From contig CAVVXL010000001.1 in the NCBI GenBank assembly GCA_963752235.1, positions 1,856,590 through 1,920,589 of the forward strand: a stretch of DNA of 64,000 bases, given 5' to 3'. The notes under the pieces were generated by a model. It was not told where the DNA came from. It did not search any database and saw nothing but the letters and a program-made list of their open reading frames with translations. Below, piece by piece: positions 8,009 through 44,765 of this stretch. Within the stretch, counting starts at the first letter, position 1; the number at the start of each line of letters is the position of its first letter. The DNA is from an uncultured Acidobacteriota bacterium (lineage in GTDB: Bacteria > Acidobacteriota > Thermoanaerobaculia > Multivoradales > UBA5704). The position numbers and the translations under genes were made by a program.

Positions 8009-8292
8009 CCTGTGACTGCAGGTACTTGAAGCAGACCACGAGCGGCCAGCGCGCCGATGAGCTGGGCGAGATCTTCGCGCAGCCGCGCCTCGGGCACGTC
8101 GTACTCCGCGCAGAGGGCGTGGCAGACCGCTTCGGCATCGCCGTGGAGTTGAAGTAAAGACCACATCCGGGTTCCCACCTCGTCGAGTCCGTAGTACCGG
8201 CCGGTTACGGTTTCGAGGAGGACCGCCTCGCCGTCGAGATCCCGGAACAGCACGGATTCCGAGACGGTGATGCGAGGCGCAGAGTCAGTCAT
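8005..8292 (-). CDS. PqqD-family RiPP recognition element protein (lasso B1)
   Basis: 95 aa. ...FRDLDGEAVLLETVTGRYYGLDEVGTRMWSLL... has the PqqD/RRE fold signature. Translationally coupled to the cyclase. Confidence 0.75.
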   Translation of the reverse strand: MTDSAPRITVSESVLFRDLDGEAVLLETVTGRYYGLDEVGTRMWSLLQLHGDAEAVCHALCAEYDVPEARLREDLAQLIGALAARGLLQVPAVTG

Positions 8293-14300: not shown

Positions 14301-17300
14301 TGTCGAGCCAGACCCGGTCGCCGACCGAGCCGGTGTTCTTGTAGCCGAAGTCGACGTCGGTCCGGTTCTGACCGGCGGTGAGGGTGAAGGTCGCCTGGTT
14401 GGCCGTCGCGATCCCGTCGAGGTCGAAGGTCGCCGCGGTCCCAGCGGGGAGCGAAGCGGGGACGATCTTGACGGTGTAGCTGCCGGCCGCCAGGTTGCCG
14501 AACGTGTAGTTGCCGTCGCCGGCGGTCGTCGTCGTCGCGACCACGGTGCCGCCGCTGTTCACCAGTTGGACGGTGACGCCGTTGATGCCGGTCTCGCCGG
14601 CGTCCTGAGCGCCGTTGCCGTTGGCGTCGAGCCAGACCCGGTCGCCGACCGAGCCGGTGTTCTTGTAGCCGAAGTCGACGTCGGTCCGGTTGGCGCCGGC
14701 GGCGAGCGTGAAGGTCGCCTGGTTGGCCGTCGCGATCCCGTCGAGGTCGTAGGTCGCCGCGGTCCCAGCGGGGAGCGAGGCGGCAACGATCTTGACGGTG
14801 TAGGTGCCGGCCGCCAGGTTGTTGAATGTGTAGTTGCCGTCGCCACCGGTCGTGGTGGTCGCCACCACGTTGTTCGCGGCATCGAGCAGCTGGACGGTGA
14901 CGCCGTTGATGCCGGTCTCGCCGGAATCCTGGATGCCGTTGCCGTTGGCGTCGAGCCAGACGCGGTCGCCGACCGAGCCCGTGTTCTTGTAGCCGAAGTC
15001 GACGTCGGTGCGGCTGGCGCCGGCGGCGAGCGTGAAGGTCGCCTGGTTGGCCGTTGCGATCCCGTCGAGGTCGTAGGTCGCCGCAGTCCCAGCCGGGAGC
15101 GAGGCGGCAACGATCTTGACCGTGTAGCTGCCGGCGGCCAGGTTGCTGAACGTGTAGTTGCCGTCGCCCGCGGTCGTCGTGGTCGCCACCAGGTTGTTCG
15201 AGGCGTCGAGCAGCTGGACGGTGACGCCGTTGATGCCGGTCTCGCCGGAATCCTGGACACCGTTGCCATTCGCGTCGAGCCAGACCCGGTCGCCGACCGA
15301 GCCCGTGTTCTTGTAGCCGAAGTCGACGTCGGTGCGGCTGGCGCCGGCGGCGAGCGTGAAGCTGGCCGTGTTGGCGGTGGCGACGCCGTCGAGGTCGTAG
15401 GTCGGCGTCACCCCCGGCGGGAGCGAGGCGGCCACGATCTTGACGGTGTAGCTGCCGGCCACCAAGTTGTCGAACGTGTAGTTGCCGTCGCCGCTCGTGG
15501 TGGTGGTGGCCACCACGGTGTTCGCGGCATCGAGCAGTTGGACGGTGACGCCGTTGATGCCGGCCTCACCGGCGTCCTGGGTGCCGTTGCCGTTGCTGTC
15601 GAGCCAGACGCGGTCGCCGACCGAGCCCTTGTTCTTGTAGCCGAAGTCGACGTCGGTGCGGGTGGCGCCGGCGGCGAGGGTGAAGCTGGCGGCGTTCGCC
15701 GTGGCGATGCCGTCGAGGTCGTAGGTCGGGGTCATGCCGGCCGGCAGGGTGCTGGGCACCACGCGGACGGTGTAGTTGCCGGCGGTGGCCGGGAAGGCGT
15801 AGTTGCCGTCGCCGCTGGTGATCGTCGCCGCGACGACGTTGCCGCCGGCGTCGACGAGCTGGACGGTGACGCCGTTGATGCCGGCCTCGCCGGAATCCTG
15901 AACGCCGTTGCCGTTGGCATCGAGCCAGATGCGGTCACCGACCGAGCCGACCGTCGAGCAGCCGTCGAGGTCGACGTTGATGTCGCCCTGGCCGGTCGAC
16001 TGCAGGTTGGCGCCGGCGGTGGGCTGGCTGGTGACGTTCCACACGTACCAGCCGGAGCCGCCGAAGTTGCCGTTCTTGCCGTTGGCGCCGGCACCCACCT
16101 GGAAGGCCGGGCCGGTCTGGTCGATCCGGATCACCGCCCCCGCGTAGTTGCCGATCCCCGTCAGGGTGCCGGTGTACGAGGTGTAGTAGTACCAGGTCGC
16201 CGGATCGATCGAGCCGCCGTTGGCCACGTAGGCCGAGGCGAAGAGCTCTTCCTTCGGGCTGCCGGCCGGCGGCGTCGACTGATAGCCGCTGAACTGCACG
16301 TCGACCGTGAAGGCGTTGTTCGGATCCGACTTGCTGCGCACGGTCCCGGTCAGGTGAGCGGTGCCGTCGGTGTTCGAGGTGAAGCCACCGGCCGTCGGGA
16401 CGAAGACGAAGTCCGTGCCGATGCCGGGCAGGTAGAACGAGTGGCCGTTCGGACCGTTGTTGAGAGCCGGGTCCGAGATGGACGGCATGGCGCAGGAGCT
16501 GCCACCCGGAGGGGGCGTCCAGTAGCCGAAGTCGACGTCGGTGCGGTTGGCGCCGGCGGCAAGGGCGAAGGAAGCCGTGTTGGCCGTGCCGAGGCCGTCG
16601 AGGTCGTAGGTCTCGGCCAAGCCGGCCGGAAGCGTGGCGGTGACCACCCGGACGCTGTAGGAGCCGCCCGCGAGGTTGCCGAAGAGGTAGTTGCCGTCGC
16701 CGGCCGTGACTGTCGAGGCGATCACGTTCGAGCCGCTGTCGAGCAGCTGAACGGTCACCCCGTTGATGCCGGCCTCGCTGGAGTCCTGGACGCCGTTGCC
16801 GTTGCTGTCGAGCCAGACGCGGTCGCCGACCGAGCCGTTGGCGCGGTAGCCGAAGTCGACGTCGGTGCGGTTGGTGCCGGCGGCGAGAGTGAACGTGGCC
16901 TGGTTGGCCGAGGCGACGCCGTCGAGGTCGTAGGTCTCGGCGACTCCGGCCGGTAGCGAAGAGACGCGGACGGTGTAGGTGCCGGCCGCCAGGTTGTTGA
17001 ACGTGTAGTTGCCGTCACCCGCCGTGGTGGTGGTCGCCACGACGTTGTTCGAGCCATCGAGGAGCTGGACGGTGACGCCGTTGATGCCGGCCTCACCCGC
17101 GTCCTGGACGCCGTTGCCGTTGCCGTCGAACCAGACGCGGTCGCCGACCGAGCCGGTGTTCTTGTAGCCGAAGTCGACGTCGGTGCGGGTGGCACCGGCG
17201 GCGAGGGTGAAGGTCGCCTGGTTGGCGCTCGCGACGCCGTCGAGGTCGTAGGTCTCGGCGACCCCGGCCGGCAGCGAAGAGACGCGGACGGTGTAGGTGC

Positions 17301-20300
17301 CGGCCGCCAGGTTGTTGAACGTGTAGTTGCCGTCGCCCGCGGTCACCGTGGTGCCCACCACGTTGTTGGCGCCGTCGAGCAGTTGGACGGTGACGCCGTT
17401 GAGGCCGGCCTCGCCCGCATCCTGCGCGCCGTTGCCGTTGCCGTCGAGCCAGACGCGGTCGCCGACCGAGCCGGTGTTCCGGTAGCCGAAGTCGACGTCG
17501 GTGCGGGTGGCACCGGCGGCGAGGGTGAAGGTCGCCTGGTTGGCGCTCGCGATGCCGTCGAGGTCGTAGGTCTCCGCGACCCCGGCCGGCAGCGACGAGA
17601 CGCGCACCGTGTAGGTGCCCCCCGCCAGGTTGTTGAACGTGTAGTTGCCGTCGCCCGCGGTCACCGTAGTGCCGACCACGTTGTTGGCGCCGTCGAGCAG
17701 CTGGACGGTGACGCCGTTGATGCCGGCCTCGCCCGCATCCTGCGCGCCGTTGCCGTTGCCGTCGAGCCAGACGCGGTCGCCGACCGAGCCGGTATTCCGG
17801 TAGCCGAAGTCGACGTCGGTGCGGTTGGCGCCGGCGGCGAGGGTGAAGGTCGCCTGGTTGGCCGTCGCGATGCCGTCGAGGTCGTAGGTCTCCGCGACCC
17901 CGGCCGGCAGCGACGAGACGCGCACCGTGTAGGTGCCCCCCGCCAGGTTGTTGAACGTGTAGTTGCCGTCGCCGGACGTGGCCGTGGTAGCCACGACGTT
18001 GGCGCTGGCGTCGAGGAGCTGAACGGTGACGCCGTTGAGGCCGGCCTCACCCGCGTCCTGGACACCGTTGCCGTTGCTGTCGAGCCAGACGCGATCACCG
18101 ACCGAGCCGGTGGCCCGGTACCCGAAGTCGACATCGGTCCGATGGTCACCGGCGGCGATCGTCAGGGTGGCGGTATTGGCCGTGGCGATCCCGTCGAGGT
18201 CGTAGGTCGGCGCGACTCCCGGGGGGAGCGAGCCGGCGACGACGCGGACCGTGTAGGTGCCGCTGTTGAGGTTGTCGAAGGTGTAGTTGCCGTCACCGCT
18301 GGTGGTCGCGGTGGCGACGACGTTGCTCGCGCCGTCGAGGAGCTGGACGGTGACGCCGTTGATGCCGGCCTCACCCGCGTCCTGGACGCCGTTGCCGTTG
18401 CTGTCGGTCCACACGCGGTCGCCGATCGAGCCGGTGCCGCGATAGCCGAAGTCGACGTCGGTGCGGTGGGCACCGGTCGCCAGGCTGAACGAGGCGCTGT
18501 TGGCCGAGGCGACACCGTCGAGGTCGTAGGTCTCCGCAACTCCCGCGGGGAGCGTGGCGGCGTCGACCTGGACGGTGTAGTTGCCGGCGATCAGAGTGTC
18601 GAAGGTGTAGTTGCCGTCACCGCTGGTCGTGGTGGTCGCGACCAGGACGCCGTACGCGTCGAGCAGCTTGATGGTCACGCCGTTGATGCCGGTCTCGCCG
18701 GCGTCCTGGACGCCGTTGCCGTTGGTGTCGAGCCAGACCCGGTCACCGACCGAGGCCGTGGCCGGCGGGCAGTCGCCGAGGTCGATGTTGATGTCGCCCT
18801 GACCGGTCGGCAGCAGGTTGGCACCGACGGTGGGCTGGCTGGTGACGTTCCAGATGAACCAGCCCGAGGCGCCAAAATGAGTGTTCTTGCCGTTGGCGCC
18901 GGCTCCCACCTCGAAGGCCGGACCCGTCTGCGTCATGTCGATGATGGCGCCGGCGTAGTTGCCGATCCCCGTCAGGGTGCCGGTGAAACCGGTGTAGTAG
19001 AACCAGGTCGAGGGATCGACCGGACCGCCGTTCTCGACGTACGCGGGGGGGAGGAGCTCCTTCTTCGGGCTCCCCGCCGGCGGGCTCGCCGAGTAGCCGG
19101 TGAAGTGCACCACCACGGTGAACGCGTTGTTCGGGTTCGAGGCGCTGCGCAGAAGGCCCGTGAGCTGAGCGGTGCCGTCGGCGTTCGCCACGAAGCTGCC
19201 GGGGATCGGCGTGAAGATGAAGTCGGTGCCGATGCCGGGCAGATAGAAGGAATGGCCGGACGGGAACTGGTTGTAGGCCGGGTCGCCGGCCGCGCCGGTC
19301 GCGCAATCCGTGAAGACCGGCGGCGGCGTGCGGTAGCCGAAGTCGACGTCGGTGCGGTTGGCGCCGGGGGCGAGACTGACGGTGGCCTGGTTGGCCGTGG
19401 CGACGCCGTCGACGTCATAGGTCTCCGCGACTCCGGCCGGAAGCGTCGAGGTGACGATGCGGACCGTGTAGGTGCCGCCGGCGAGGCCGGTGAAGGTGTA
19501 GTTGCCGTCGCCCGCCGTGGTGGCCGTGGCGATGACGTTCGAGCCGGCGTCGAGGAGCTGCACGGTGACGCCGTTGATCCCGGCCTCGCCGGCATCCTGG
19601 ACGCCGTCGCCGTTGCCGTCGAGCCAGACCCGGTCACCGATCGAGCCGTTGAGGCGGTAGCCGAAGTCGACGTCGGTGCGGTTGGCGCCGGCGGCGAGAG
19701 TGAAGGTCGCCTGGTTGGCCGTCGCGACGCCGTCGAGGTCGTAGGTCTCCGCCACTCCAGGCGGAAGCGTGGCGGCGACGACACGGACGGTATAGGTGCC
19801 ACCGGCCAGGTTGTTGAACGTGTAGTTGCCGTCGCCCGCCGTGGTCGTCGTACCCACCACGTTGTTCGAAGCGTCGAGCAGCTGGACGGTGACGCCGTTG
19901 ATCCCGGCCTCACCCGCGTCCTGGACGCCGTTGCCGTTCGAATCGAGCCAGACGCGGTCGCCGACCGAGCCGTTGTAGCGATAGCCGAAGTCGACGTCGG
20001 TGCGGTTGGCGCCGGCGGCGAGAGTGAAGGTCGCCTGGTTGGCCGTCGCGACGCCGTCGAGGTCGTAGGTCTCGGTGACCCCCGCCGGCAGCGACGAGAC
20101 ACGCACCGTGTAGGTGCCCCCCGCCAGGTTGTTGAACGTGTAGTTGCCATCGCCCGACGTGGTCGTCGTGCCCACCACGTTGTTCGAAGCGTCGAGCAAC
20201 TGGACGGTGACGCCGTTGATCCCGGCCTCACCGGCGTCCTGGACGCCGTTGCCGTTGCTGTCGAGCCAGACCCGGTCGCCGACCGAGCCGGTGTAGCGGT

Positions 20301-23300
20301 AGCCGAAGTCGACGTCGGTGCGGTTCGCGCCGGCGGCGAGGGTGAAGGTCGCCTGGTTGGCCGTCGCGACGCCGTCGAGGTCGTAGGTCTCGGTGACCCC
20401 CGCCGGCAGCGACGAGACGCGCACCGTGTAGGTGCCGCCCGCCAGGTTGTTGAACGTGTAGTTGCCGTCGCCCGACGTGGTCGTCGTGCCCACCACGTTG
20501 TTCGAAGCGTCGAGCAACTGGACGGTGACGCCGTTGATCCCGGCCTCACCGGCGTCCTGGACGCCGTTGCCGTTGCTGTCGAGCCAGACCCGGTCGCCGA
20601 CCGAGCCGGTGTAGCGGTAGCCGAAGTCGACGTCGGTGCGATTGGCGCCGGCGGCGAGGGTGAAGGTCGCCTGGTTGGCCGTCGCGACGCCGTCGAGGTC
20701 GTAGGTCTCGGTGACCCCCGCCGGCAACGACGAGACGCGCACCGTGTAGGTGCCGCCCGCCAGGTTGTTGAACGTGTAGTTGCCGTCGCCCGACGTGGTC
20801 GTCGTGCCCACCACGTTGTTCGAAGCATCGAGCAACTGGACGGTGACGCCGTTGATCCCGGCTTCGCCGGCATTCTGGACGCCGTTGCCGTTGCTGTCGA
20901 GCCAGACCCGGTCGCCGACCGAGCCGTTGTAGCGATAGCCGAAGTCGACGTCGGTGCGGTTGGCGCCGGCGGCGAGGGTAAAGGTCGCCTGGTTGGCCGT
21001 CGCGATGCCGTCGAGGTCGTAGGTCTCCGCGACCCCGGCCGGCAGCGACGAGACGCGCACCGTGTAGGTGCCGCCCGCCAGGTTGTTGAACGTGTAGTTG
21101 CCGTCACCCGCCGTAGTGGTGGTGCCGACGATGTTGTTCGCGCCGTCGAGGAGCTGGACGGTGACGCCGTTGATCCCGGCCTCGCCCGCGTCCTGGACGC
21201 CGTTGCCGTTGCTGTCGAGCCAGACGCGGTCGCCGACCGAGCCGGTGTAGCGGTAGCCGAAGTCGACGTCGGTGCGGTTCGCGCCGGCGGCGAGGGTGAA
21301 GGTCGCCTGGTTGGCCGAGGCGACGCCGTCGAGGTCGTAGGTCTCGGTGACCCCCGCCGGCAGCGACGAGACGCGCACCGTGTAGGTGCCCCCCGCCAGG
21401 TTGTTGAACGTGTAGTTGCCATCGCCCGCCGTGGTGGTGGTGCCGACGACGTTGTTCGCGCCGTCGAGGAGCTGGACGGTCACGCCGTTGATCCCGGCCT
21501 CGCCCGCATCCTGGACGCCGTTGCCGTTGGCGTCGAGCCAGACGCGGTCGCCGACCGAGCCCGTGTAGCGATAGCCGAAGTCGACGTCGGTGCGGTTCGC
21601 GCCAGCGGCGAGGGTGAAGGTCGCCTGGTTGGCCGTCGCGATGCCGTCGAGGTCGTAGGTCTCCGCGACCCCCGCCGGCAGCGACGAGACGCGCACCGTG
21701 TAGGTGCCCCCCGCCAGGTTGTTGAACGTGTAGTTGCCGTCACCCGCCGTAGTGGTGGTCCCCACGACGTTGTTCGCGCCGTCGAGCAGTTGCACCGTCA
21801 CGCCGTTGATCCCGGCCTCGCCGGCATCCTGGATGCCGTCGCCGTTGGCGTCGAGCCAGACGCGGTCGCCGACCGAGCCCGTGTAGCGATAGCCGAAGTC
21901 GACGTCGGTGCGGTTGGCGCCGGCGGCGAGGGTGAAGGTCGCCTGGTTGGCCGAGGCGACGCCGTCGAGGTCGTAGGTCTCGGTGACCCCGGCAGACAGC
22001 GACGAGACACGCACCGTGTAGGTGCCCGGCGCCAGGTTGTTGAACGTGTAGTTGCCGTCGCCGGACGTGGTGGTGGTGCCGACGACGTTGTTCGCGCCGT
22101 CGAGCAGTTGCACCGTCACGCCGTTGATCCCGGCCTCGCCGGCATCCTGGACGCCGTCGCCGTTGCTGTCGAGCCAGACGCGGTCGCCGACCGAGCCGGT
22201 GTAGCGATAGCCGAAGTCGACGTCGGTGCGGTCCATACCAGCGGCGAGGGTGAAGGTCGCCTGGTTGGCCGAGGCGACGCCGTCGAGGTCGTAGGTCTCG
22301 GTGATCCCCGCCGGCAGCGACGAGACGCGCACCGTGTAGGTGCCGCCCGCCAGGTTGCTGAACGTGTAGTTGCCGTCGCCGGCCGTGGTGGTGGTGCCGA
22401 CAACGTTGTTCGCGCCGTCAAGCAGCTGCACCGTCACGCCGTTGATCCCGGCCTCGCCGGCGTCCTGGACGCCGTTGCCGTTGCTGTCGAGCCAGACCCG
22501 GTCGCCGACCGAGGCGGAGCCGCGATAGCCGAAGTCGACGTCGGTCCGCGTCTGGCCGCTGGTCAGGGTGACCGTGGCGGCGTTGGGAGTGCCCACGCCG
22601 TCGAGGTCGTAGGTCGGCGTCGTCACCCCGGCCGGCAGCGTCGCGGGGACGACCCGGACCGTGTAGGTATCGGCCGCGAGGCTGTTGAAGGTGTAGTTGC
22701 CGTCGCCGCTCGTGGTGGCGGTACCCACCAGGTTGTTAGACGAGTCGAACAGCTGCACCGTGACGCCGTTGATGCCGGCCTCGCCCGCGTCCTGGATGCC
22801 GTTGCCGTTGGCATCGTTCCAGACGCGGTCGCCGAGCGCAGCCGTCGCCGTCACCGGAGCGTGATAACCGAAGTCGATGTCGGTCTCAACGGTGCCGGCG
22901 GGAGCGGGGACGGTGGCCGCGTCGGGGGTGTCGATGCCGTCGAGGTCGTAGGTCTCGACCGAGCCCGCGGGGAGCGTCGTGGTGTCGACCTGGATGGTGT
23001 ACGTCCCCTCGGCCAGGTGGTCGAAGGAGTAGTGGCCATCCGCGCCGGTCACCGTGCTCTCCAGCGGGTTCCCGGAGTCGTCGTACAGGTTGACCGTGAC
23101 GCCGACGAAGCCGGGCTCATCGGGATCCTGGACGCCGTCGCTGTTGACGTCGTTCCAGACCCGGTCGCCGAGCGAGACGTTGCCCTGGTAGCCGAAGTCG
23201 TAGTCGGTGCGGATCTCGCCGCCGACGATGGTGAGCGCCGCCTGGTTGGGCGTCGCGACCCCGTCCTCGTCGAAGGTCGGCGTCAGGCCGCCCGGCAGCG

Positions 23301-25026
23301 TCGTGTCATCCACCCGCACCGTGTAGTTGCCGGCGGGGATGTTGGTGATCATGTAGTTGCCGTCACCGTTGGTCGTGTCCTGCGCGATGACGTTGCCGCC
23401 GCTGTCGAGCAACTGCACGACGACGTTGTTGATGCCCGGCTCGCCCGGGTCCTGCACGCCGTTGCCGTTGTAGTCGTTCCAGATGCGGTTGCCGACCGCG
23501 CCGGGCTTCTTGAAGCCGAAATCGCAGGTCAGCACGTTGTTGTTGGTGATCGTCGCCTGGCACTGCTCGGGAGTCGTCGGCGTGTAGCCCGAAAGGGTAC
23601 CGCCGCTCTCACCGTTGAAGTTGCTGGGCGCGATCTTGACCGTGTACGGGAACGCCTCGACCTCGAAGGAGTAGTGGCCGTCGGCGTCCGTATGAGTGGT
23701 CGCGACGAGCGCGTCGTTCTCGTCGAAGAGCTGCATCTCGACGCCGCCGATGCCGGGCTCTCCCGGGTCCTGGACGCCGTTGTTGTTCTCGTCGACGAAG
23801 ACCGTGTCGCCGAGCAGGTAGGGGTGCAAAGGCGCACAGGGGATCCCGGCCTGGCTCACGCAGAGCGCGCGGCCCGGCAGCAGCAGGGCGTTGAGGTTCT
23901 GCATGTCGACCCCCTGAATCCGCAGCAGGAAGATGCCGGGAGGGATCAGGTCGTCGGTGTGATAGTCCATCTGACTGCGATCGAAAGGATCGGTCGAAAT
24001 CTTGAACTGCTCCCACTCCTGGTTGCCCGAGGGGTTGTCGTTGGCGAAGGTGCGGCCGTCCGGGAAGATCAGGTCGTAGCGGATGGCCGGCGGCTTGGAA
24101 AGGTAGATCCCGGTGCCCGCCGGGCTGCGGTCGTCCGGAGGATTGCCGGTCGTGCCGCCGGAGCCCATGGCAACCCCTTCGGAAACCGTATCGCTGGTCG
24201 CCCAGACCGGCTTGAACGGCGCGTTGGGCGTATCCGGATCGTCGGTATCCTGGTTCGTGCCGTCGTAGCTGCCGTGATCGAAGTCGCCATCCCAAATGGT
24301 GATCGAACGCTGGCTCACCGCCTGTTCGAAATAGAAGTTGAAGTAGCCGTCGTACGTCGTCGGCGTGGCCGACGGAAAGCTCGGATAGACGATCTTGAGA
24401 TCGGAGTTTCCCGTCACGTTCGCGATATATGAAAACGGCTCGGGGGAAGGGAACAGGGAGGACCCGCCCACGTTGGCTCCACTCGTACGGAGCTTGAAGG
24501 CATTGAGGGTCACCGCCGGAGCTGTCAGCTTAATGCGCAGGAGATAGAAATAGTTGCCGCTCGGGGCCTTGGCCGACGGATCAGTATTGACGGTGTAGTC
24601 GATCCATGCGTTGTCCGGCATCGTAGTGGAGAGCTGGACCGACTGGCCGGAGAGCGGAGCGACCGTCGCCGCCGCGTGGTCGCGGTTCGGATCGGCATAC
24701 AGGGTGTAGCTGAAGACGGCGGGAGAACCCGTATCCCAATGGGAGAGAAGGGAGCTGTCGACTCCCTTGGCGTCGCCGTCGAAGATACCGACCGTGAAGG
24801 TCGCCGTCCCCTTGGGCACCGCGATCTCGAGATCTAGCGTCGGCTGGCTCAGGGTGACCAGGCCGGCGCCGTTGGCGATCGCGAGGAACCGCGCGTCCGT
24901 CGGATCACAACTCGGCAGGCAGTTGTAGGTGACCTGGGCCTGGACGGATACCGCCGCCAGGAACAGGAAGGCGATCAGCGCACCAAACTTCCATCGTAAA
25001 GACAGCATAAAAGAGCCTCCTCTCAT
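8398..25026 (-). CDS. giant secreted repeat protein (5,542 aa) made of tandem SdrD-B-like / Cna-B-type Ca-binding domains; putative adhesin/surface protein
   Basis: Single uninterrupted ORF. Signal peptide MLSLRWKFGALIAFLFLAAVSVQA; the probable true start is Met7 at 25008, preceded by GGAGG. About 38 repeats of ~115 aa (VGDRVWLDSNGNGVQDAGEAGINGVTVQLLD...GDGNYTF.NL..GTYTV...DFGY). Four ~175-aa insert domains. No recognisable C-terminal sorting signal. Confidence 0.85.
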   Translation of the reverse strand: MRGGSFMLSLRWKFGALIAFLFLAAVSVQAQVTYNCLPSCDPTDARFLAIANGAGLVTLSQPTLDLEIAVPKGTATFTVGIFDGDAKGVDSSLLSHWDTGSPAVFSYTLYADPNRDHAAATVAPLSGQSVQLSTTMPDNAWIDYTVNTDPSAKAPSGNYFYLLRIKLTAPAVTLNAFKLRTSGANVGGSSLFPSPEPFSYIANVTGNSDLKIVYPSFPSATPTTYDGYFNFYFEQAVSQRSITIWDGDFDHGSYDGTNQDTDDPDTPNAPFKPVWATSDTVSEGVAMGSGGTTGNPPDDRSPAGTGIYLSKPPAIRYDLIFPDGRTFANDNPSGNQEWEQFKISTDPFDRSQMDYHTDDLIPPGIFLLRIQGVDMQNLNALLLPGRALCVSQAGIPCAPLHPYLLGDTVFVDENNNGVQDPGEPGIGGVEMQLFDENDALVATTHTDADGHYSFEVEAFPYTVKIAPSNFNGESGGTLSGYTPTTPEQCQATITNNNVLTCDFGFKKPGAVGNRIWNDYNGNGVQDPGEPGINNVVVQLLDSGGNVIAQDTTNGDGNYMITNIPAGNYTVRVDDTTLPGGLTPTFDEDGVATPNQAALTIVGGEIRTDYDFGYQGNVSLGDRVWNDVNSDGVQDPDEPGFVGVTVNLYDDSGNPLESTVTGADGHYSFDHLAEGTYTIQVDTTTLPAGSVETYDLDGIDTPDAATVPAPAGTVETDIDFGYHAPVTATAALGDRVWNDANGNGIQDAGEAGINGVTVQLFDSSNNLVGTATTSGDGNYTFNSLAADTYTVRVVPATLPAGVTTPTYDLDGVGTPNAATVTLTSGQTRTDVDFGYRGSASVGDRVWLDSNGNGVQDAGEAGINGVTVQLLDGANNVVGTTTTAGDGNYTFSNLAGGTYTVRVSSLPAGITETYDLDGVASANQATFTLAAGMDRTDVDFGYRYTGSVGDRVWLDSNGDGVQDAGEAGINGVTVQLLDGANNVVGTTTTSGDGNYTFNNLAPGTYTVRVSSLSAGVTETYDLDGVASANQATFTLAAGANRTDVDFGYRYTGSVGDRVWLDANGDGIQDAGEAGINGVTVQLLDGANNVVGTTTTAGDGNYTFNNLAGGTYTVRVSSLPAGVAETYDLDGIATANQATFTLAAGANRTDVDFGYRYTGSVGDRVWLDANGNGVQDAGEAGINGVTVQLLDGANNVVGTTTTAGDGNYTFNNLAGGTYTVRVSSLPAGVTETYDLDGVASANQATFTLAAGANRTDVDFGYRYTGSVGDRVWLDSNGNGVQDAGEAGINGVTVQLLDGANNIVGTTTTAGDGNYTFNNLAGGTYTVRVSSLPAGVAETYDLDGIATANQATFTLAAGANRTDVDFGYRYNGSVGDRVWLDSNGNGVQNAGEAGINGVTVQLLDASNNVVGTTTTSGDGNYTFNNLAGGTYTVRVSSLPAGVTETYDLDGVATANQATFTLAAGANRTDVDFGYRYTGSVGDRVWLDSNGNGVQDAGEAGINGVTVQLLDASNNVVGTTTTSGDGNYTFNNLAGGTYTVRVSSLPAGVTETYDLDGVATANQATFTLAAGANRTDVDFGYRYTGSVGDRVWLDSNGNGVQDAGEAGINGVTVQLLDASNNVVGTTTTSGDGNYTFNNLAGGTYTVRVSSLPAGVTETYDLDGVATANQATFTLAAGANRTDVDFGYRYNGSVGDRVWLDSNGNGVQDAGEAGINGVTVQLLDASNNVVGTTTTAGDGNYTFNNLAGGTYTVRVVAATLPPGVAETYDLDGVATANQATFTLAAGANRTDVDFGYRLNGSIGDRVWLDGNGDGVQDAGEAGINGVTVQLLDAGSNVIATATTAGDGNYTFTGLAGGTYTVRIVTSTLPAGVAETYDVDGVATANQATVSLAPGANRTDVDFGYRTPPPVFTDCATGAAGDPAYNQFPSGHSFYLPGIGTDFIFTPIPGSFVANADGTAQLTGLLRSASNPNNAFTVVVHFTGYSASPPAGSPKKELLPPAYVENGGPVDPSTWFYYTGFTGTLTGIGNYAGAIIDMTQTGPAFEVGAGANGKNTHFGASGWFIWNVTSQPTVGANLLPTGQGDINIDLGDCPPATASVGDRVWLDTNGNGVQDAGETGINGVTIKLLDAYGVLVATTTTSGDGNYTFDTLIAGNYTVQVDAATLPAGVAETYDLDGVASANSASFSLATGAHRTDVDFGYRGTGSIGDRVWTDSNGNGVQDAGEAGINGVTVQLLDGASNVVATATTSGDGNYTFDNLNSGTYTVRVVAGSLPPGVAPTYDLDGIATANTATLTIAAGDHRTDVDFGYRATGSVGDRVWLDSNGNGVQDAGEAGLNGVTVQLLDASANVVATTATSGDGNYTFNNLAGGTYTVRVSSLPAGVAETYDLDGIATANQATFTLAAGANRTDVDFGYRNTGSVGDRVWLDGNGNGAQDAGEAGINGVTVQLLDGANNVVGTTVTAGDGNYTFNNLAGGTYTVRVSSLPAGVAETYDLDGIASANQATFTLAAGATRTDVDFGYRNTGSVGDRVWLDGNGNGAQDAGEAGLNGVTVQLLDGANNVVGTTVTAGDGNYTFNNLAAGTYTVRVSSLPAGVAETYDLDGVASANQATFTLAAGATRTDVDFGYKNTGSVGDRVWFDGNGNGVQDAGEAGINGVTVQLLDGSNNVVATTTTAGDGNYTFNNLAAGTYTVRVSSLPAGVAETYDLDGVASANQATFTLAAGTNRTDVDFGYRANGSVGDRVWLDSNGNGVQDSSEAGINGVTVQLLDSGSNVIASTVTAGDGNYLFGNLAGGSYSVRVVTATLPAGLAETYDLDGLGTANTASFALAAGANRTDVDFGYWTPPPGGSSCAMPSISDPALNNGPNGHSFYLPGIGTDFVFVPTAGGFTSNTDGTAHLTGTVRSKSDPNNAFTVDVQFSGYQSTPPAGSPKEELFASAYVANGGSIDPATWYYYTSYTGTLTGIGNYAGAVIRIDQTGPAFQVGAGANGKNGNFGGSGWYVWNVTSQPTAGANLQSTGQGDINVDLDGCSTVGSVGDRIWLDANGNGVQDSGEAGINGVTVQLVDAGGNVVAATITSGDGNYAFPATAGNYTVRVVPSTLPAGMTPTYDLDGIATANAASFTLAAGATRTDVDFGYKNKGSVGDRVWLDSNGNGTQDAGEAGINGVTVQLLDAANTVVATTTTSGDGNYTFDNLVAGSYTVKIVAASLPPGVTPTYDLDGVATANTASFTLAAGASRTDVDFGYKNTGSVGDRVWLDANGNGVQDSGETGINGVTVQLLDASNNLVATTTTAGDGNYTFSNLAAGSYTVKIVAASLPAGTAATYDLDGIATANQATFTLAAGASRTDVDFGYKNTGSVGDRVWLDANGNGIQDSGETGINGVTVQLLDAANNVVATTTTGGDGNYTFNNLAAGTYTVKIVAASLPAGTAATYDLDGIATANQATFTLAAGANRTDVDFGYKNTGSVGDRVWLDANGNGAQDAGETGINGVTVQLVNSGGTVVATTTTAGDGNYTFGNLAAGSYTVKIVPASLPAGTAATFDLDGIATANQATFTLTAGQNRTDVDFGYKNTGSVGDRVWLDSNGNGVQDAGETGINGVTVQLLDASNNLVATTTTAGDGNYTFNNLAAGSYTVKIVATSLPAGVAATYDLDGIATANQATFTLAAGASRTDVDFGYKNTGSVGDRVWLDANGNGIQDSGETGINGVTVQLLDAANNVVATTTTGGDGNYTFNNLAAGTYTVKIVAASLPAGTAATYDLDGIATANQATFTLAAGANRTDVDFGYKNTGSVGDRVWLDSNGNGAQDVGETGINGVTVQLVNSGGTVLATTTTAGDGNYTFGNLAAGSYTVKIVAASLPAGVTATYDLDGIATGNQAAVTLTAGQNRTDVDFGYKNTGSIGDRVWLDANGNGAQDSGETGINGVTVQLLDSSNNVVATTTTAGDGNYTFSNLAAGSYTVKVSGLPAGTAPTFDLDGIATANQATFTLTAGQNRTDVDFGYKNTGSIGDRVWLDTNANGAQDSGENGINGVTVQLVNSGGTVIATTTTAGDGNYTFSNLAAGSYTVKVSGLPAGTAPTFDLDGIATANQAAVTLTAGQNRTDVDFGYKNTGSIGDRVWLDANGNGAQDSGETGINGVTVQLLDSSNNVVATTTTAGDGNYTFSNLAAGSYTVKVSGLPAGTAETFDLDGVATANQATFTLTAGQNRTDVDFGYKNTGSVGDRVWLDANGNGVQDSGETGINGVTVQLVDASNNVVATITTAGDGNYTFSNLAAGTYTVKVSGLPAGTAETFDLDGVATANQATFTLTAGQNRTDVDFGYKNTGSVGDRVWLDSNGNGVQDSGETGINGVTVQLLDASNNVVATTTTAGDGNYTFSNLAAGTYTVKVSGLPAGTAETFDLDGVATANQATLTLAAGASRTDVDFGYKNTGSIGDRVWTDTNGNGVQDSGEAGINGVTVQLVNSGGTVIATTTTAGDGNYTFSNLAAGSYTVKIVPASLPAGVAATYDLDGTATANQAAVTLTAGQNRTDVDFGYRLTGSVGDRVWMDSNGNGVQDAGETGINGVTVQLLDSANNVVATTTTSGDGNYTFGNLAAGSYSVRVVTSSLPAGVVPSFDLDGIATANFASFTLAAGQNRTDVDFGYKTNGCAVGAPLDTVYGPSSGGQAFWFPGIVTDLVFTPNPGGFVANGDGTAHLTGTLRSVSDPTKSFTVDVAFSGLTNTVGSGSPKKELQASAYSENGGPVNTATWSYYTTYTGTLTGTGSYAGAVITIARTGPAFQTGIGANGKNVRFGGSGWFLWTVTHQPTSGSSFTTTGQGDINIDLDDCSTLGSVGDRVWLDTNGNGVQDSGEAGINGVTVQILDNNGVAFASAITAGDGSYTFDGIPAGTYSVKVITTALPAGVTPSFDLDGVATANKATFTLAAAQDRTDVDFGYKNAGSIGDRVWLDTNGNGVQDSGEAGINGVTVQLVNSGGTVIATATTSGDGNYTFSNLVAGTYTVKVVASTIPGGAAQTYDLDGLATANAATVTLAAGASRTDVDFGYRTSASVGDLVWFDLNGNGVLDSGESGLDGVTVQLLNSGGTVVATTTTSGGGLYNFSNLVAGSYSVRVVTSTLPLGGALSPSYDLDGIATANVAAFTLTGGQTRTDVDFGYKVNGCALAAALDATYGPSSGGQAFWFPGIVTDLVFTPNPGSFVVNSDYTAHLTGTLRSVSDPTRSFTVDVTFSGLTTAIGSGSPKKELKSTAYSENGGPINTASWYYFTSYTGTLTGTGSYAGAVVTIHNTGPAFQVGFGANGKNLNFGGSGWYLWTVTHQPTTGSSFQTTGQGDINIDLDDCGTLGSVGNRVWTDTNGNGVQDSGETGINGVTVQLLDSTGLAIASAVTATDGNYSFGGLTAGTYSVKIVTSTLPAGVTATYDLDGVSTAGKATFALTAGQSRTDVDFGYRGSLTIGDKVWNDTNSNGHLDSGEAGISGVTVQLLNSSGTVIATTTTNSSGSYSFGNLAAGTYTVKIVTSTLPAHWTETFDLDGLSTANQATFSLTASRTDVDFGYHCGS
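8401..23750. repeat. about 345-bp near-identical tandem coding repeats (with four ~525-bp interspersed insert units) inside the giant gene
   Basis: The same ~345-nt unit recurs dozens of times at high identity. It generates two giant spurious antisense ORFs (8410..16956, 17383..24432). Insert units lie at about 9050-9600, 10570-11120, 15950-16510 and 18770-19330. Confidence 0.8.
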
Positions 25027-25362: not shown

Positions 25363-25546
25363 GGGGCATCCACCTCTTGGGCTGGTGAAGGTTTTAGGGA
25401 TGACTACGGTACGGACCAGTCTGAGCAGCGAGCGTCAGGGAAGCGTCAGGAGCCCGTCCATCGATGGGATACAATGGGATCCAGGCATTGCATGTCAGTT
25501 CGGTATTCGGAGTCCGGTCGAGGACCTTGCGCGAGGGAGTTTCATC

Positions 25547-27847
25547 GTGAGCCAGATCCGAGTGCGCCTCCTGGGGGGGTTCGAAGTCTGGGCGGGAGAC
25601 CGTCAGGTCGGGGGGTTCGAGTCGCAGAAGGTGAGGGCCCTGCTGACCTATCTGGTCTGTCACCGCCGGCGGTCGTTCAGCCGGGACCATCTCGCCGACC
25701 TGCTGTGGCCTGAACGCGGGGGGGACGGCTCCCGTCATGCCCTGCGTCAGGCGATGTACAACCTGCGCGTCAAGCTTCCCGCCGGGGAGCCGCTGCTGCG
25801 CAGCAGCCATCTCGAGATCGGCCTCCATCCGGAAGCGGACTGCTGGGTGGACGTCGAGGCCTTCGAGGAGGCCCTGCGCCTGGGCACCGAGAGGGCGGTC
25901 GATCCGCAGCACCTGTCGGCGGCCGTCCAGCTCTACCGGGGGGAGTTCCTGGCCGGTTTCTTCGTCAGGGACAGCCCGGCCTTTGAGGACTGGCTGCTCA
26001 CCGAGCAGGTCCGCCTGCGCGACTCGGTCGTCGAGGTGCTGCACCGGCTGATCGACAGCTACCGACGGCGCGGCGAATACCGGTTCGGGGTCCACTACGC
26101 CCGCCGGCTGGTGGCCCTCGAGCCGCTCTCCGAGGAGGCGCACCGGGAGCTTATGCGCCTCTGCTCGCTCGCCGGCCAGCGCAACCGGGCGCTCGCCCAG
26201 TACGAGGAGCTGATCAACGTCCTGCGCGACGAGCTGGGGGTCGAGCCGCTCGCCGAGACGCGGGCGCTCTACGAGTCGATCCTCTCCGAGGCGGTGCGCG
26301 AGGAGAACGTGGAAGGCCAGGAGGAGCCGATCGGTCCGCTCATCCCCCTGGCCGGCCGCGGCGGCGCCTTCAACGCCCTGCGGGAGGGGTGGTCCCGCGC
26401 GCTCGCCGGCACGGTCCACCTCACCCTGGTCACCGGCGAACACGGGATCGGCAAGACCCGGCTGATCAAGTCGTTCCTCGACACCACGACCTCGAAGCGG
26501 AGCTACCGGGTGCTCAAAGGGCAGTGCTACGAGCTGAGCTCGCTGCTCCCCTACCGGCCGTTCATCGAGGTGCTGCGGGGCGCCCTAATGGAAGAGGACG
26601 AGATCTCCGGACAGCTCCTCGCGGCCGTGCCGCCGGAGGTGCTGGGAGACCTCCTCCGCCTGGTTCCTGAGCTGAGCGAGTTGCGGCCGGATCTCCCGGC
26701 GCCGGCGCCCCTCGCGAGCCCGGAGGAGCGCCGCCGGCTGTTCGCCTCGGCCGGGCGCTTCCTCGAAGGTCTGTGCAGCGGCGGCAACCCGCTGATCCTG
26801 TTCCTCGACGACCTCCACCTGGCGGACCCCGACACGCTCGACCTGCTGGGGTTCCTCCTCGCCAAGCTCGAGGGTCCGATCTGGTTTCTCGCCGCCTGCC
26901 GCCCCGAGGAGCTCGACTGGGAACATCCGCTCAATCAGATCTTCCGCCGCGGCGAAAAGGAGGGGCGGGCGACGCGCCTGGAGCCGGACCGGCTGGAGAC
27001 CGCGGCGCTCCTCGAGATTGCCGAATCGCTGCTCGGCGAGCCGCGGGCGGCCGAGCTCGCCGCCTTCCTCGAAGCGCAGAGCTCCGGCCTGCCGCTGGCC
27101 GTCTCGGAGCTGGTCAACTATCTCTGGGACGAAGGGCGCCTGGCACCCCGCGAGATGGGGATCTGGGATCTGGTGGGCCCGCTCGGCGACCTCACGGTGC
27201 CGGCGGACCTCGACGAGCTGATCCGGCTGCGCATCCGCCGCCTGCCCAACTCGACGCGGCGGCTGGCGACCCTGGCGGCGATGATCGGCCAGAGCTTCGA
27301 CGTCCACCTCCTCCAGGAGGCGGCCGACGAGCACTCCCTGGTCGTGGAGATCGGGCTCGAGATCCTCCTCAAGCGCTGGCTGATCCGGCAGTTCGCCTAC
27401 TTCTGGACCGCCGGCCGGAACGAGGCGGACCTCCTGTCGTCGTGGACCCGGGGCGCCCGCCGGGGGAGCTTCGAGTTCTCGCACACCCGCGTCAGGAGCG
27501 CCATCTATCGCGACTTGAACCCGCTGCGCCGGCAGGCGATGCACGCCCAGGTGGCCGCGGCGCTCGAGAACCTGCGGGGAGGGCGGGATTGCGAGACCCT
27601 GGCCTACCATTGGACCGCCGCGGGGCAGTGGGAGAAAGCGCTCCCTTTCCTCGAACGCGCGCTCGAGCGGGCGCAGGCGGTGGGGGCGGTGGACGCCGCC
27701 CGCCGTTACTGCGACCAGGCGATCGAGGGCTTGAGCCGGCTCGCCGCCGGCGCCCGCAGCGAGGCGCAGGCCGAGCGGTGGCGCGGGGAGCGGGAAGTGA
27801 TGCGGGAAAAGATCCGGTCGACCTGGGGAAGCGGCGTCAGCGGCTAG
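25547..27847 (+). CDS. SARP/AfsR-family transcriptional regulator (OmpR-type winged-helix DNA-binding domain + BTAD + AAA/NB-ARC ATPase + TPR-like C-terminus)
   Basis: VSQIRVRLLGGFEVWAGDRQV...KVRALLTYLV...LWPE is a SARP DNA-binding/BTAD signature. LTLVTGEHGIGKTRL is a P-loop. The helical C-terminus is TPR-like. Probable GTG start at 25547 with GAGGGAG SD; the track ORF starts at 25385. Confidence 0.7.
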   Translation: MSQIRVRLLGGFEVWAGDRQVGGFESQKVRALLTYLVCHRRRSFSRDHLADLLWPERGGDGSRHALRQAMYNLRVKLPAGEPLLRSSHLEIGLHPEADCWVDVEAFEEALRLGTERAVDPQHLSAAVQLYRGEFLAGFFVRDSPAFEDWLLTEQVRLRDSVVEVLHRLIDSYRRRGEYRFGVHYARRLVALEPLSEEAHRELMRLCSLAGQRNRALAQYEELINVLRDELGVEPLAETRALYESILSEAVREENVEGQEEPIGPLIPLAGRGGAFNALREGWSRALAGTVHLTLVTGEHGIGKTRLIKSFLDTTTSKRSYRVLKGQCYELSSLLPYRPFIEVLRGALMEEDEISGQLLAAVPPEVLGDLLRLVPELSELRPDLPAPAPLASPEERRRLFASAGRFLEGLCSGGNPLILFLDDLHLADPDTLDLLGFLLAKLEGPIWFLAACRPEELDWEHPLNQIFRRGEKEGRATRLEPDRLETAALLEIAESLLGEPRAAELAAFLEAQSSGLPLAVSELVNYLWDEGRLAPREMGIWDLVGPLGDLTVPADLDELIRLRIRRLPNSTRRLATLAAMIGQSFDVHLLQEAADEHSLVVEIGLEILLKRWLIRQFAYFWTAGRNEADLLSSWTRGARRGSFEFSHTRVRSAIYRDLNPLRRQAMHAQVAAALENLRGGRDCETLAYHWTAAGQWEKALPFLERALERAQAVGAVDAARRYCDQAIEGLSRLAAGARSEAQAERWRGEREVMREKIRSTWGSGVSG

Positions 27848-32211: not shown

Positions 32212-33882
<1,671 letters not shown>

Positions 33883-33933: not shown

Positions 33934-34236
33934 TCACTTGCTGCCGTTCGAACCGACGATGGCCAGGATCTCTTCCTCGCGGAGGATCACGTAGTCATTG
34001 CCGTCGAGCTTGATCTCGCTGCCGGAGTACTTGCCCATGAGGACGCGGTCGCCCTCCTTGACGTCCATCGGCGCGCGCTTGCCCTCGTCGTTGAGCTTGC
34101 CCGGGCCGACCGCGACCACCTCGGCCTCCTGCGGCTTCTCTTTGGCGCTGTCCGGAATGATGATGCCCCCCCGGACCTGCTCTTCCTGCTCAATGCGCTT
34201 CACCAGGACACGATCGTGCAAAGGACGAATATTCAT
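33934..34236 (-). CDS. groES: co-chaperonin GroES (10 kDa)
   Basis: [46 protein letters not shown]...; AAGGAGGT RBS. The track ORF (to 34446) is an upstream run-on. Confidence 0.95.
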
Positions 34237-34295: not shown

Positions 34296-34322
34296 TCAGC
34301 ACTCGCCCGCATTGACTGCTAA
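34296..34322. promoter_or_regulatory. CIRCE-like HrcA operator upstream of groES
   Basis: TCAGCACTC-N9-GACTGCTAA versus consensus TTAGCACTC-N9-GAGTGCTAA (one mismatch per arm), about 60-85 nt upstream of the groES ATG. Confidence 0.6.
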
Positions 34323-34475
34323 CAGCATAGTCAGACAGAAAATGCCTGTCAAGGGTTTGAGGGGGCTCTTCGTGCCCGAGCTTGGCCCGCGCAGCCGACT
34401 GGCAGCGAGCGAAGCGAGCGCACACGAAGGAGGCGAGCAGGGCCAAGCTCGGGCACGAAGAGCCCCCTCGGGCGA

Positions 34476-34898
34476 TCAGGCGGTGCCGAGGGGGGCGAAG
34501 CGCTCCTCGATGCCGGCGGGCTCGCCGATCGCCCGCCCGTCGCGCTCGACCCAGGCGTGAGCGGCGAGCGTGCCCCCCTGGCGGAGGACGCCGATCTTCA
34601 GCTCGCTCGGGATGCCGTGCCGCCCGAGCAGCCAGCGCAGGGTGAGCGCCCGGGGGACGCAGCGCATCGGATAGAGATGATGGCGCGCCGCCGCCGCCGC
34701 CGCCCAGACGAGCCGGCCGACCGCTTCCTCACCAGAGGCCCTGCCGGCCGGCGCGGGGGCGAGCCAGCGCTCCAGCCGGGCGAAGGAGAGCGCGCGCAGC
34801 CCCAGATCGGCGGCGAGGAGGATCCCCCAGGCGCGAGCGAAGGCCCAGAGGTCCGCCGGGCTCCTGCCCTTCCGCCGATTGAGATCTCGAACCGCCAT
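34476..34898 (-). CDS. transglutaminase-like cysteine protease, lasso-peptide B2 (leader peptidase) homolog; orphan
   Basis: 140 aa. ...[29 protein letters not shown]...[17 protein letters not shown] has the Cys...His(AHAWVE)...Asp arrangement and spacing of PF13471/lasso B2 proteins. Confidence 0.6.
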
Positions 34899-35198
34899 AG
34901 CCGATTATCCTCCCGATCCCAGCCGATCTGAGCCCCGGCGGCTCAGAAAATCGGCTGTGCTAAAATCACCCGGCTTGAACGACGACCCTCCGAAACGACC
35001 CATCGCCCTCGCTCCCCCCGGCCTCCCGAACCCGCGGTCCCCAGGCTCAGCGGGTGAGCTGCGCCCGCACGGCCCTCGCGATCGGCGCGATCGCGAGGAG
35101 GGGCCCGGTTGAGCTTCTTCCTGCTCGCCGCCGCCCTTCCCGCCGCCGTGCCGGTTTCCCCGGCGCCGTCGGGCTTCGCAGCCCATCCCGGCTGGGGG

Positions 35199-36488
35199 AT
35201 GGTCCTCGGGCTCGTCCTGGTGGTCCTCAACGGCTTCTTCGTGGCCGCCGAGTTCGCCCTGGTCCGCATCCGGCCGACCCAGCTCGAGCCCTACGTCGCC
35301 GACGGGGTCCGCCGCGCCCGGCTGGCGCGGCACATGACCCGCCACCTCGACGCCTATCTCTCCGCCACCCAGCTCGGCATCACCCTCGCGAGCCTGGCGC
35401 TCGGCTGGGTCGGCGAGCCGGCGTTCTCTTGGCTGGTCCGGCCGCTGATCACCCCGCTGACCGCCAATCCCGACCTCGTGCACTCGATCAGCCTGGGCCT
35501 CTCCTTCCTCGTCATCACCATCCTGCACATCGTGCTCGGCGAGCTGGCTCCGAAGTCGATCGCGATCCGCAAGACCGAGGGGACGGCGCTGCTGATCTCC
35601 TTCCCCCTCTTCTTCTTCTTCAAGCTCACCTACCCGGCGATCTGGCTGCTCAACCACACCGCCAACCGCCTGCTCAAGCTGATCGGCATCCCGCCGGCGG
35701 CCGAGGGGGAGCTGGCGCATGACGAAGAAGAGCTGCGGCTGCTGCTCTCCTCCTCCAAGGACAGCCAGATCTCGCTGCAGAAGCGCGAGCTGCTCGACAA
35801 TATCTTCGAGCTGTCGCACCGCATCGCCCGGCAGATCATGCTCCCCCGCCAGGACGTGGTCTACCTGTCGACCGAGCGGCCGCTGGCCGAAAACCTGCGC
35901 ATCGCTCGCCGCAGCGGTCATACCCGCTTCCCGCTCTGCGACGGCGACCTCGACCACGTCATCGGCCTGCTCCACATCAAGGACATCTTCCACCGCGAGC
36001 GCCCGTTGACCGCGCTCACCGAGGTGGCCCGCGAGATCGCCTTCGTCCCCGAGACGCTCGAGCTCGACCGCCTGCTCAAACGGATGCGCACCGAGCGCTT
36101 CCACCTGGCGGCGGTGATCGACGAATACGGCGGCGTCTCCGGCATCGTCACCCTCGAGGACGTCATCGAGGAGATCGTCGGCTCGATCCAGGACGAGTTC
36201 GACGTCGAGCGCCCCGAGCTGGTCGAGAAGGGGGAAGGGGTCTGGGTGGTCTCCGGCGGCATGCTGGTCGAGGACCTCGAAGAGGCGCTGGGGATCGAGA
36301 TCTCCGAGCGCGACGACGACACCATCGGTGGCGTCGTCTTCTCCGAGCTGGGGAGGAACCCCGCCGTCGGCGACCAGGTGGAGCTGGGGCCGGCGACCGT
36401 CGAGGTCCTCGAGGTGCAGCTCAACCGGGTGGCGACGCTGCGGGTGGTGGTACACCCGCGGGAGACGGTGCCGCAGGACGAGGATTAG
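35199..36488 (+). CDS. CorC/HlyC (TlyC) family transporter-associated protein (DUF21 membrane domain + CBS pair + CorC_HlyC)
   Basis: N-terminal DUF21 helices (MVLGLVLVVLNGFFVAAEFAL). CBS pair region. C-terminal ...VEVLEVQLNRVATLRVVVHP transporter-associated domain. Track ORF starts at 35109 (TTG); ATG at 35199 preferred. Confidence 0.75.
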   Translation: MVLGLVLVVLNGFFVAAEFALVRIRPTQLEPYVADGVRRARLARHMTRHLDAYLSATQLGITLASLALGWVGEPAFSWLVRPLITPLTANPDLVHSISLGLSFLVITILHIVLGELAPKSIAIRKTEGTALLISFPLFFFFKLTYPAIWLLNHTANRLLKLIGIPPAAEGELAHDEEELRLLLSSSKDSQISLQKRELLDNIFELSHRIARQIMLPRQDVVYLSTERPLAENLRIARRSGHTRFPLCDGDLDHVIGLLHIKDIFHRERPLTALTEVAREIAFVPETLELDRLLKRMRTERFHLAAVIDEYGGVSGIVTLEDVIEEIVGSIQDEFDVERPELVEKGEGVWVVSGGMLVEDLEEALGIEISERDDDTIGGVVFSELGRNPAVGDQVELGPATVEVLEVQLNRVATLRVVVHPRETVPQDED

Positions 36489-44754: not shown

Positions 44755-44765
44755 CGCCGAAGTCC

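Follow-up and report, generated by a model that had tools for sequence, protein, structure and literature searches.

The question raised by this locus is where a lasso peptide gene cluster that lacks its own leader peptidase gene obtains that enzyme. The stretch analyzed (64,000 nt, contig CAVVXL010000001.1, from an uncultured Acidobacteriota bacterium of the Thermoanaerobaculia), here termed the window, contains a lasso cluster comprising genes for a recognition protein (B1), a cyclase (C), a precursor (A) and a candidate kinase (K). Removal of a lasso leader is performed by B1 together with the leader peptidase B2 (PMC10885120), and because the YxxPxL leader of A must be removed in this way, the cluster has a job for a B2. 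An open reading frame (ORF) with the features of a B2 gene is located outside the cluster, directly upstream of groES, with 26.2 kb separating its stop codon (34476) from the B1 start (8292). We consider it probable that this ORF, at positions 34476 to 34898, is the trans-encoded B2 of the lasso pathway 26 kb away. This proposal, made in a preliminary description of the window, gained support from phylogeny, from the catalytic residues, from synteny with a lasso block devoid of B2 and from co-absence of the two. Family membership, residue conservation, phylogenetic placement, synteny and co-occurrence were established here, and the enzymatic steps and the action in trans are what we infer.

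The ORF consists of 140 codons beginning with ATG, has a GGGAGG ribosome-binding site upstream and exhibits a third-codon-position G+C content of 0.90, as in the real genes of this window of 70% G+C. The encoded protein matched the Pfam family PF13471 (Transglut_core3) with 80.5 bits (cutoff, 26 bits) and the NCBIfam model NF033537, "lasso peptide biosynthesis B2 protein," with 75 bits (cutoff, 33 bits), the latter over model positions 3 to 131 of 132. NF033537 is an equivalog-domain model, and the lasso B2 family corresponds to family C96 of MEROPS. A six-frame search of the 64-kb window with a B2 hidden Markov model (HMM) detected one B2, with 191.9 bits, the runner-up scoring 7.9 bits (E = 0.72), in agreement with the earlier statement that no other such protein is present in the window. 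RCVPRALTL and the second motif quoted at that time were both found in the 140-residue product.

A catalytic arrangement of the PF13471 type with Cys, His and Asp had also been proposed, and of this the family, Cys80 and His114 stood while the aspartate did not. Cys80 and His114 were invariant in 86 of 86 aligned B2 sequences, a set containing both relocated and in-cluster B2s. Asp120 was rejected as the triad residue, as this position is occupied by D, E, Q, A, K or R among homologues, while Glu126 is conserved and aligns with Glu124 of TfuB2. Position 126 is acidic in 82 of the 86 sequences (Glu in 70, Asp in 12), with Gly present in 3. A mutational and AlphaFold study of Thermobifida fusca TfuB2 (bioRxiv 10.1101/2022.04.06.487251) assigned its triad to Cys79, His112 and Glu124; according to its authors, B2 proteins carry a Cys-His-Asp/Glu triad, and there is no experimental structure of any B2. 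By alignment, the spacing of Cys80, His114 and Glu126 corresponds to that of C79, H112 and E124; comparison with this mutationally characterized enzyme thus matched the Cys, the His and the acidic residue, the last being Glu instead of Asp. A confident AlphaFold2 model of B2, built on 45 homologues, had a predicted local distance difference test score (pLDDT) of 81.6 and a predicted template modeling score (pTM) of 0.77. As judged from its sequence, the ORF encodes a genuine lasso leader peptidase B2.

The lasso cluster was confirmed to contain B1, C, A and K and to be devoid of B2, as six-frame HMM searches found no B2 inside the window cluster or in the 22-kb loci around the C genes of three relatives (L086, L087 and L088, where L numbers denote the loci compared). 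At its start, the C gene shares 4 nt with the end of B1. The best NCBIfam matches of B1 were lasso PqqD chaperone models, under their cutoffs, and the best match of C was NF033535, the lasso isopeptide-bond cyclase model, with 353.9 bits (under the cutoff of 525 bits); C is identical to P0121. Precursor A has the YxxPxL leader, the Thr at -2 and the Asp/Glu at core positions 7 to 9 that lasso precursors require, although its score with NF033521 (lasso_leader_L3) was 18 bits against a cutoff of 19. Its junction reads RKRYESPRLQEWGSIIDLT-G/GLLSDLTD... (the slash marks the predicted start of the core), with a predicted ring from Gly1 to Asp8. In nine relatives, the precursor has the pattern ...RKPYESPxLxEWGSIxELT-x/G......D..DF.GGS.GV, in which the leader motif is invariant and the Asp at core position 8 is kept. 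K exhibited a weak match (E = 3e-6, 26.5 bits) to TIGR04352, HprK_rel_A, far under the cutoff of 200, and no Pfam match and no PDB sequence match were found for it; this gene adjoins A in all relatives and is also present in canonical B1-B2-C-K clusters. Precursor A does not have a terminal Ser, so any phosphorylation site would differ from that of paeninodin.

The loci compared were 80 from genomes, 80 from metagenomes and 16 obtained by exact protein match; the metagenome scan yielded only nine further close relatives, most of them on short contigs. There were 218 database homologues of B2, the nearest being 60 to 87% identical and labelled Thermoanaerobaculia or Acidobacteria. Homologues with 54 to 87% identity formed one clade, termed the relocated clade here. 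None of 34 members of this clade had B1 directly upstream, and 24 of 32 had groES directly downstream. Among the other B2s, which are 36 to 50% identical, come mostly from other Acidobacteriota and usually occur in the order B1-B2-C-gap-K, the corresponding figures were 102 of 119 with B1 directly upstream and 0 of 112 with groES downstream. The window B2 nests phylogenetically among in-cluster lasso B2s.

Members of the relocated clade carry the same B2-less lasso cluster, on one contig with B2, at distances from about 3 kb (to the nearest block gene) to about 43 kb (to C), and this linkage is kept in more than 20 genomes. Four layouts were observed. In layout I (L004/L026, L007, L009, L017 and L090), B2, groES and groEL are followed on the opposite strand by the outer-membrane protein gene (OMP), K, A, C, B1 and a giant gene, in that order; the block begins about 2 to 3 kb from B2, and B1 is about 6.5 kb from B2. 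In layout II, which is that of the window, B2 and groESL are followed by a few genes and then by the giant gene, B1, C, A, K and OMP on the same strand. This layout was found on one contig in two cases, the distance from B2 downstream to C being about 24 kb in L001 with L086 and 18 kb in L016 with L088. In layout III (L010 with L087, OY970373.1), the place of groESL after B2 is taken by repeats and a transposase-like ORF, and C is 42.6 kb from B2 on the same strand. In layout IV (L062 and L020), B2 abuts B1-K divergently, without groESL. In five further cases, the C and B2 homologues come from contigs of equal length, which indicates but does not prove that they are on one contig. The repeats that follow B2 in L010 (10371 to 10820) and L011 (9929 to 10615) are short tandem repeats, translating as LDPWVQLLDPWV... 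or LTHGSQSLTHGS..., with the transposase-like ORF nearby.

On three metagenome contigs (L092, 469 to 663; L093, 829 to 1020; L094, 2884 to 3000), the gene directly after the B2 homologue (68 to 72% identity) is not groES and encodes a Cys-rich peptide of about 64 residues. This peptide has a KRKLxLSRETLRxLD leader and a GG motif, ...GG/ATF.CG..CPM.CGPTEVASCTSCVCS, and is absent from the window. From its sequence, it looks like the precursor of another ribosomally synthesized and posttranslationally modified peptide (RiPP) or of a bacteriocin.

An outgroup locus on an 8.4-Mb contig (L089), in which C is 46% identical to that of the window (blastp), retains B2 within the cluster. In this locus groES and groEL lie on one strand and are followed, on the other, by BTAD, SdrD, B1, B2, CxxCxxCC, C, A and K, with CorC a few genes farther on. 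Its proteins are about equally distant from those of the window, identities being 46% for both B2 and C, 52% for B1 and 49% for K. The CxxCxxCC gene (9519 to 10004), located between B2 and C, encodes a 161-residue PF03692 protein that is absent from the window cluster. In a neighbor-joining tree, the in-cluster B2 of L089 was the sister of the entire relocated clade. The most parsimonious account is that B2 moved only once, from the cluster to the site upstream of groES, within a neighborhood that already held groESL.

Sampling was also performed for groESL loci that had not previously been linked to a B2, using four groES homologues on long contigs. L172 had a B2 upstream of groES and the regulator and giant genes downstream. 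In L171, L173 and L174, whose groEL products are about 92% identical to that of the window, no giant gene or lasso block was present within 10 kb, and no B2 was detected with the six-frame HMM. For a small sample, this pattern of co-absence fits a functional link between B2 and the lasso block.

Purifying selection acts on B2, for which the ratio of nonsynonymous to synonymous substitution rates (dN/dS) ranged from 0.28 to 0.47; the values for B1, C and K were 0.10 to 0.29. Flanking DNA of the window was 91 to 98% identical to that of its closest relative (L086), whereas a valley of divergence at about 5700 to 6900, running from the 3' half of C through A into the 5' portion of K, had an identity of 56 to 65%. 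The synonymous rate (dS) of C in this comparison was 1.08, against 0.1 to 0.2 for the flanks. The valley suggests allele replacement by recombination, or else diversifying selection, centered on the precursor.

A consistent pathway can be proposed from these data. B1 would bind the YxxPxL leader of A, and the B1-leader complex would recruit and activate B2. Through Cys80, His114 and Glu126, B2 would then cleave A after the residue following Thr(-2), freeing Gly1 of an 18-residue core, which C would link to Asp8; K may phosphorylate a Ser. In the ancestor, B2 would have been situated between B1 and C. At the base of the Thermoanaerobaculia clade, it would have relocated to a position immediately upstream of groES, in the same orientation, with its 3' end touching or running into the groES -35 box. 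Subsequent inversions of the block from the giant gene through B1, C, A and K to OMP, together with growth of the giant adhesin-like gene, would have altered the distance between B2 and the cluster.

Several observations weigh against a trans-encoded B2 serving this cluster. Both B1 and B2 were dispensable for production of pseudomycoidin in heterologous hosts (PMC6993621), so not all lasso peptides strictly need a B2. The tree that places L089 is a neighbor-joining tree without support values. The B2 search covered the 64-kb window, within a source contig of 2.2 Mb, and a second B2 may be encoded elsewhere in the genome. In a fold search of the B2 model against solved structures, the top matches were transglutaminase-like cysteine proteases, none of them significant (best E = 0.2), and a profile search against PDB sequences gave no match; the transglutaminase-like (papain-like) core fold is therefore counted as unconfirmed. 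Constraint on B2 was weaker than on its presumed partners, with a dN/dS of 0.44 in the closest comparison versus 0.17 to 0.27 for B1, C and K. Finally, codiversification of B2 with C-A-K was rejected. B2 exhibited only a mild dip, to 84 to 95% identity, and hence was not swapped with the cassette. This pattern is in keeping with an enzyme whose recognition is limited to B1 and the conserved leader, which may be the reason that B2 could leave the cluster.

Among the alternatives, one that is compatible with a trans-encoded B2 concerns the position itself: that the B2-groES junction is selected, either for cotranscription of the chaperonin with an aggregation-prone B2 or for coupling to heat shock. 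The location between CorC and a groES promoter with a CIRCE element was confirmed as previously described; in the CorC-B2 spacer, no consensus promoter for B2 itself was found on the minus strand. B2 and groES are on the same strand, the minimal B2-groES spacer is 114 to 140 nt, with the -35 hexamer starting 18 nt past the B2 stop, and no intrinsic-terminator-like site was found at the junction, the minimal spacers included. In L001, L017 and L025, the TGA stop codon of B2 falls inside the -35 hexamer TTGACA. Shuffled sequence yielded a mean of 0.1 sites as good as the promoter, and the window CIRCE, which has 2 mismatches to the consensus TTAGCACTC-N9-GAGTGCTAA, was found at this position in 19 of the 22 intergenic regions inspected. 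Selection on the junction would agree with the placement of the stop codon inside the -35 box, with the reported poor solubility of B2 proteins (bioRxiv 10.1101/2022.04.06.487251) and with survival of the adjacency while both flanks rearrange. However, a gap of 0 to 18 nt leaves almost no breakpoint target that spares the groES promoter, so that persistence needs no selection, and the L010/L011 subclade lost the adjacency yet kept B2 and the cluster. In five genomes, B2 and the promoter are separated by large insertions made up of palindromes or tandem repeats. Furthermore, CIRCE is downstream of B2 and so cannot control its initiation. Selection on the junction is accordingly regarded as unlikely. 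A fuller version, in which the position is functional because read-through into groES-groEL lets an insoluble peptidase be made with chaperonin, or wires maturation to heat stress, with a constant B2 serving a recombination-swapped C-A-K, is more doubtful still. Lock-in best accounts for the lasting adjacency, since almost no breakpoint site would spare both B2 and the essential groES promoter.

The insertion present at this junction in the window is a palindrome whose arms (34361 to 34388 and 34440 to 34467) are perfect and for which RNAfold gave -87.5 kcal/mol; it may act as an insulator or terminator. It was rejected as a dispersed repeat, being present as a single copy in the window. This palindrome is missing from L001, L004, L016 and L017, and unrelated palindromic or tandem-repeat insertions are found at the same spot in L006, L007, L009 and L013. 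This stretch, from the B2 stop to the groES -35 box, resembles a hot spot for insertions.

A second alternative, raised in the preliminary description, is that B2 is a standalone transglutaminase-like protease with some other job, connected with groESL, CorC or another peptide, and does not serve the lasso cluster. The groES adjacency in 24 of 32 loci, the B2 stop inside the groES -35 box of some genomes, the unrelated Cys-rich peptide gene after B2 in L092 to L094 and the relaxed constraint on B2 relative to B1, C and K would all be consistent with this. It was nevertheless disfavored by the comparative evidence and is considered very unlikely: B2 groups inside the in-cluster lasso B2s and scores above the cutoff of the B2 equivalog-domain model, it always co-occurs on the same contig with a B2-less lasso block and is absent where the block is absent, and it is kept without adjacent groESL in L010/L011, L020 and L062.

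Another B2, or a fused B protein, encoded elsewhere in the genome could instead process A, with the groES-linked copy being redundant or serving another cluster. The source genome was searched for B2 within the 64-kb window, Acidobacteriota often have several lasso clusters, and many canonical B1-B2-C-K loci were found. On the other hand, none of the 22 assemblies with a relocated B2 gave a second locus among the best 80 B2 loci of the genome collection, which counts weakly as the search was motif limited, and linkage across more than 20 genomes would be unexplained if B2 and the cluster were unrelated. There is little probability in this explanation. That the split pathway is a decaying remnant which makes no lasso peptide or uses host proteases, leaving B2 a relic, keeps a small probability on account of pseudomycoidin formation without B1 and B2 and would agree with a B2 dN/dS above that of its neighbors, but is most improbable given that all five genes are intact in many genomes with a dN/dS of 0.1 to 0.47, the leader motif and Asp8 are conserved and the catalytic Cys and His are invariant.

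Table 1. Features of the window referred to in the text
Feature	Coordinates	Strand	Description and basis
OMP, small putative outer-membrane beta-barrel protein	4227..4841	-	Weak PF13505; position kept in relatives, travels with lasso block
K, HprK-like kinase candidate	4897..5934	-	P-loop GGGKTG; true start probably internal Met near 5900
A, lasso precursor	5876..6061	-	61 aa; leader ...RKRYESPRLQEWGSIIDLTG, YxxPxL motif, Thr(-2); predicted core GLLSDLTDADFNGGSTGV
C, lasso cyclase	6107..8008	-	633 aa, Asn-synthase-like; PF00733, PF13537, PF13522
B1, lasso PqqD-like RiPP recognition element	8005..8292	-	95 aa; PF05402, 63 bits
Giant SdrD_B/CarboxypepD_reg repeat protein	8398..25026	-	5542 aa; ORF and Pfam; directly upstream of B1
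BTAD/AAA_16 (SARP-like) regulator	25385..27847	+	PF03704, PF13191, PF00486; divergent from giant gene
groEL	32212..33858	-	548 aa; translation; 91-100% identical in relatives, Cpn60_TCP1 at equivalent position
groES	33934..34236	-	100 aa; PF00166, 126.5 bits; 84-99% identical in relatives
CIRCE-like inverted repeat	34296..34322	-	TTAGCAGTC-N9-GAGTGCTGA, HrcA operator type; read from sequence
groES promoter, sigma-70 type	34324..34352	-	TTGACA-17-TATGCT; 10/12 consensus positions; conserved in relatives
Palindromic insertion	34359..34469		About 105-110 nt; perfect stem of about 34 bp, between B2 stop and groES promoter
B2, lasso leader peptidase	34476..34898	-	140 aa; putative catalytic Cys80, His114, Glu126
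CorC/CNNM-CBS transporter-associated protein	35109..36488	+	PF01595, PF00571, PF03471; divergent neighbor of B2

Most of the gap between B2 and the cluster is due to the giant gene, which spans 16.6 kb. Its pairing with the lasso genes is kept in all relatives and in the outgroup L089, with protein sizes ranging from 730 to more than 5000 residues, and the BTAD regulator is conserved in L001, L089, L090 and L172. Beyond CorC, a stand-alone LanC-like protein is encoded at 39972 to 41252 on the plus strand (PF05147, 133.9 bits), adjoining a DUF8575-type gene, and in its vicinity neither a lanthipeptide precursor nor a dehydratase was noticed. A segment of about 3.4 kb at about 41300 to 44800, with an AraC-family regulator gene (42766 to 43674, minus strand), has no counterpart in the closest relative, L001, and probably represents an insertion or deletion.

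Comparison with known systems places the window pathway close to the split-B lasso peptides. Like TfuB1/TfuB2 of fusilassin/fuscanodin, it has a small B2 (about 130 to 150 residues in this type) with Cys, His and Glu at near-identical positions, a PqqD-like B1 encoded separately, a cyclase of the Asn-synthase-like type and a YxxPxL...T(-2) leader. In the fusilassin type, the B1, B2 and C genes adjoin one another, whereas the window B2 is 26 kb off, on the far side of the chaperonin operon, a 16.6-kb gene and four further genes, an arrangement fixed in its clade. Phosphorylated lasso peptide clusters with an HPr-kinase-like gene have been described (PMC8498205, PMC10368454). As in the kinase-bearing clusters of paeninodin, pseudomycoidin and Bradymonadales (Bsf), the kinase-like gene of the window adjoins the precursor and cyclase genes, and the B1-B2-C-gap-K clusters of other Acidobacteriota hold the distant relatives of the window B2 (36 to 50% identity). 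Unlike the kinase-bearing clusters, the window block has a K with a weak HprK_rel_A match, a precursor without terminal Ser, an unclustered B2 and neither an ABC exporter nor a nucleotidyltransferase.

Enzymes acting in trans on RiPPs from outside the cluster have precedents in the lanthipeptide proteases (PMC8960859) and in the arginine deiminase of citrulassin (PMC8498205), in which a maturation enzyme is likewise encoded away from its cluster. Those enzymes perform final trimming or tailoring, while the enzyme considered here is a core, class-defining one. The groESL region resembles other CIRCE/HrcA operons in its sigma-70-type promoter, CIRCE and groES-groEL order but differs from them in the RiPP peptidase gene, which shares the groES strand and extends up to or into the -35 box. 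A literature search, with most subscription journals outside its reach, found neither an account of an unclustered lasso B2 nor any paper on lasso peptides in Thermoanaerobaculia, so that this is absence of evidence only.

Lasso peptide mining seeks A, B1, B2 (or B) and C side by side, and cluster-based tools would call loci of the type described here incomplete. A soil-dwelling clade of Thermoanaerobaculia appears to keep the class-defining peptidase outside the cluster, behind a chaperonin operon, and expression from a clone of the cluster by itself would probably not succeed. The arrangement would provide a natural example of a biosynthetic cluster that has come apart yet stayed functional. 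The component that moved would be the one whose recognition is confined to B1 and the conserved leader; sharp divergence between close relatives is seen in the cyclase, precursor and kinase.

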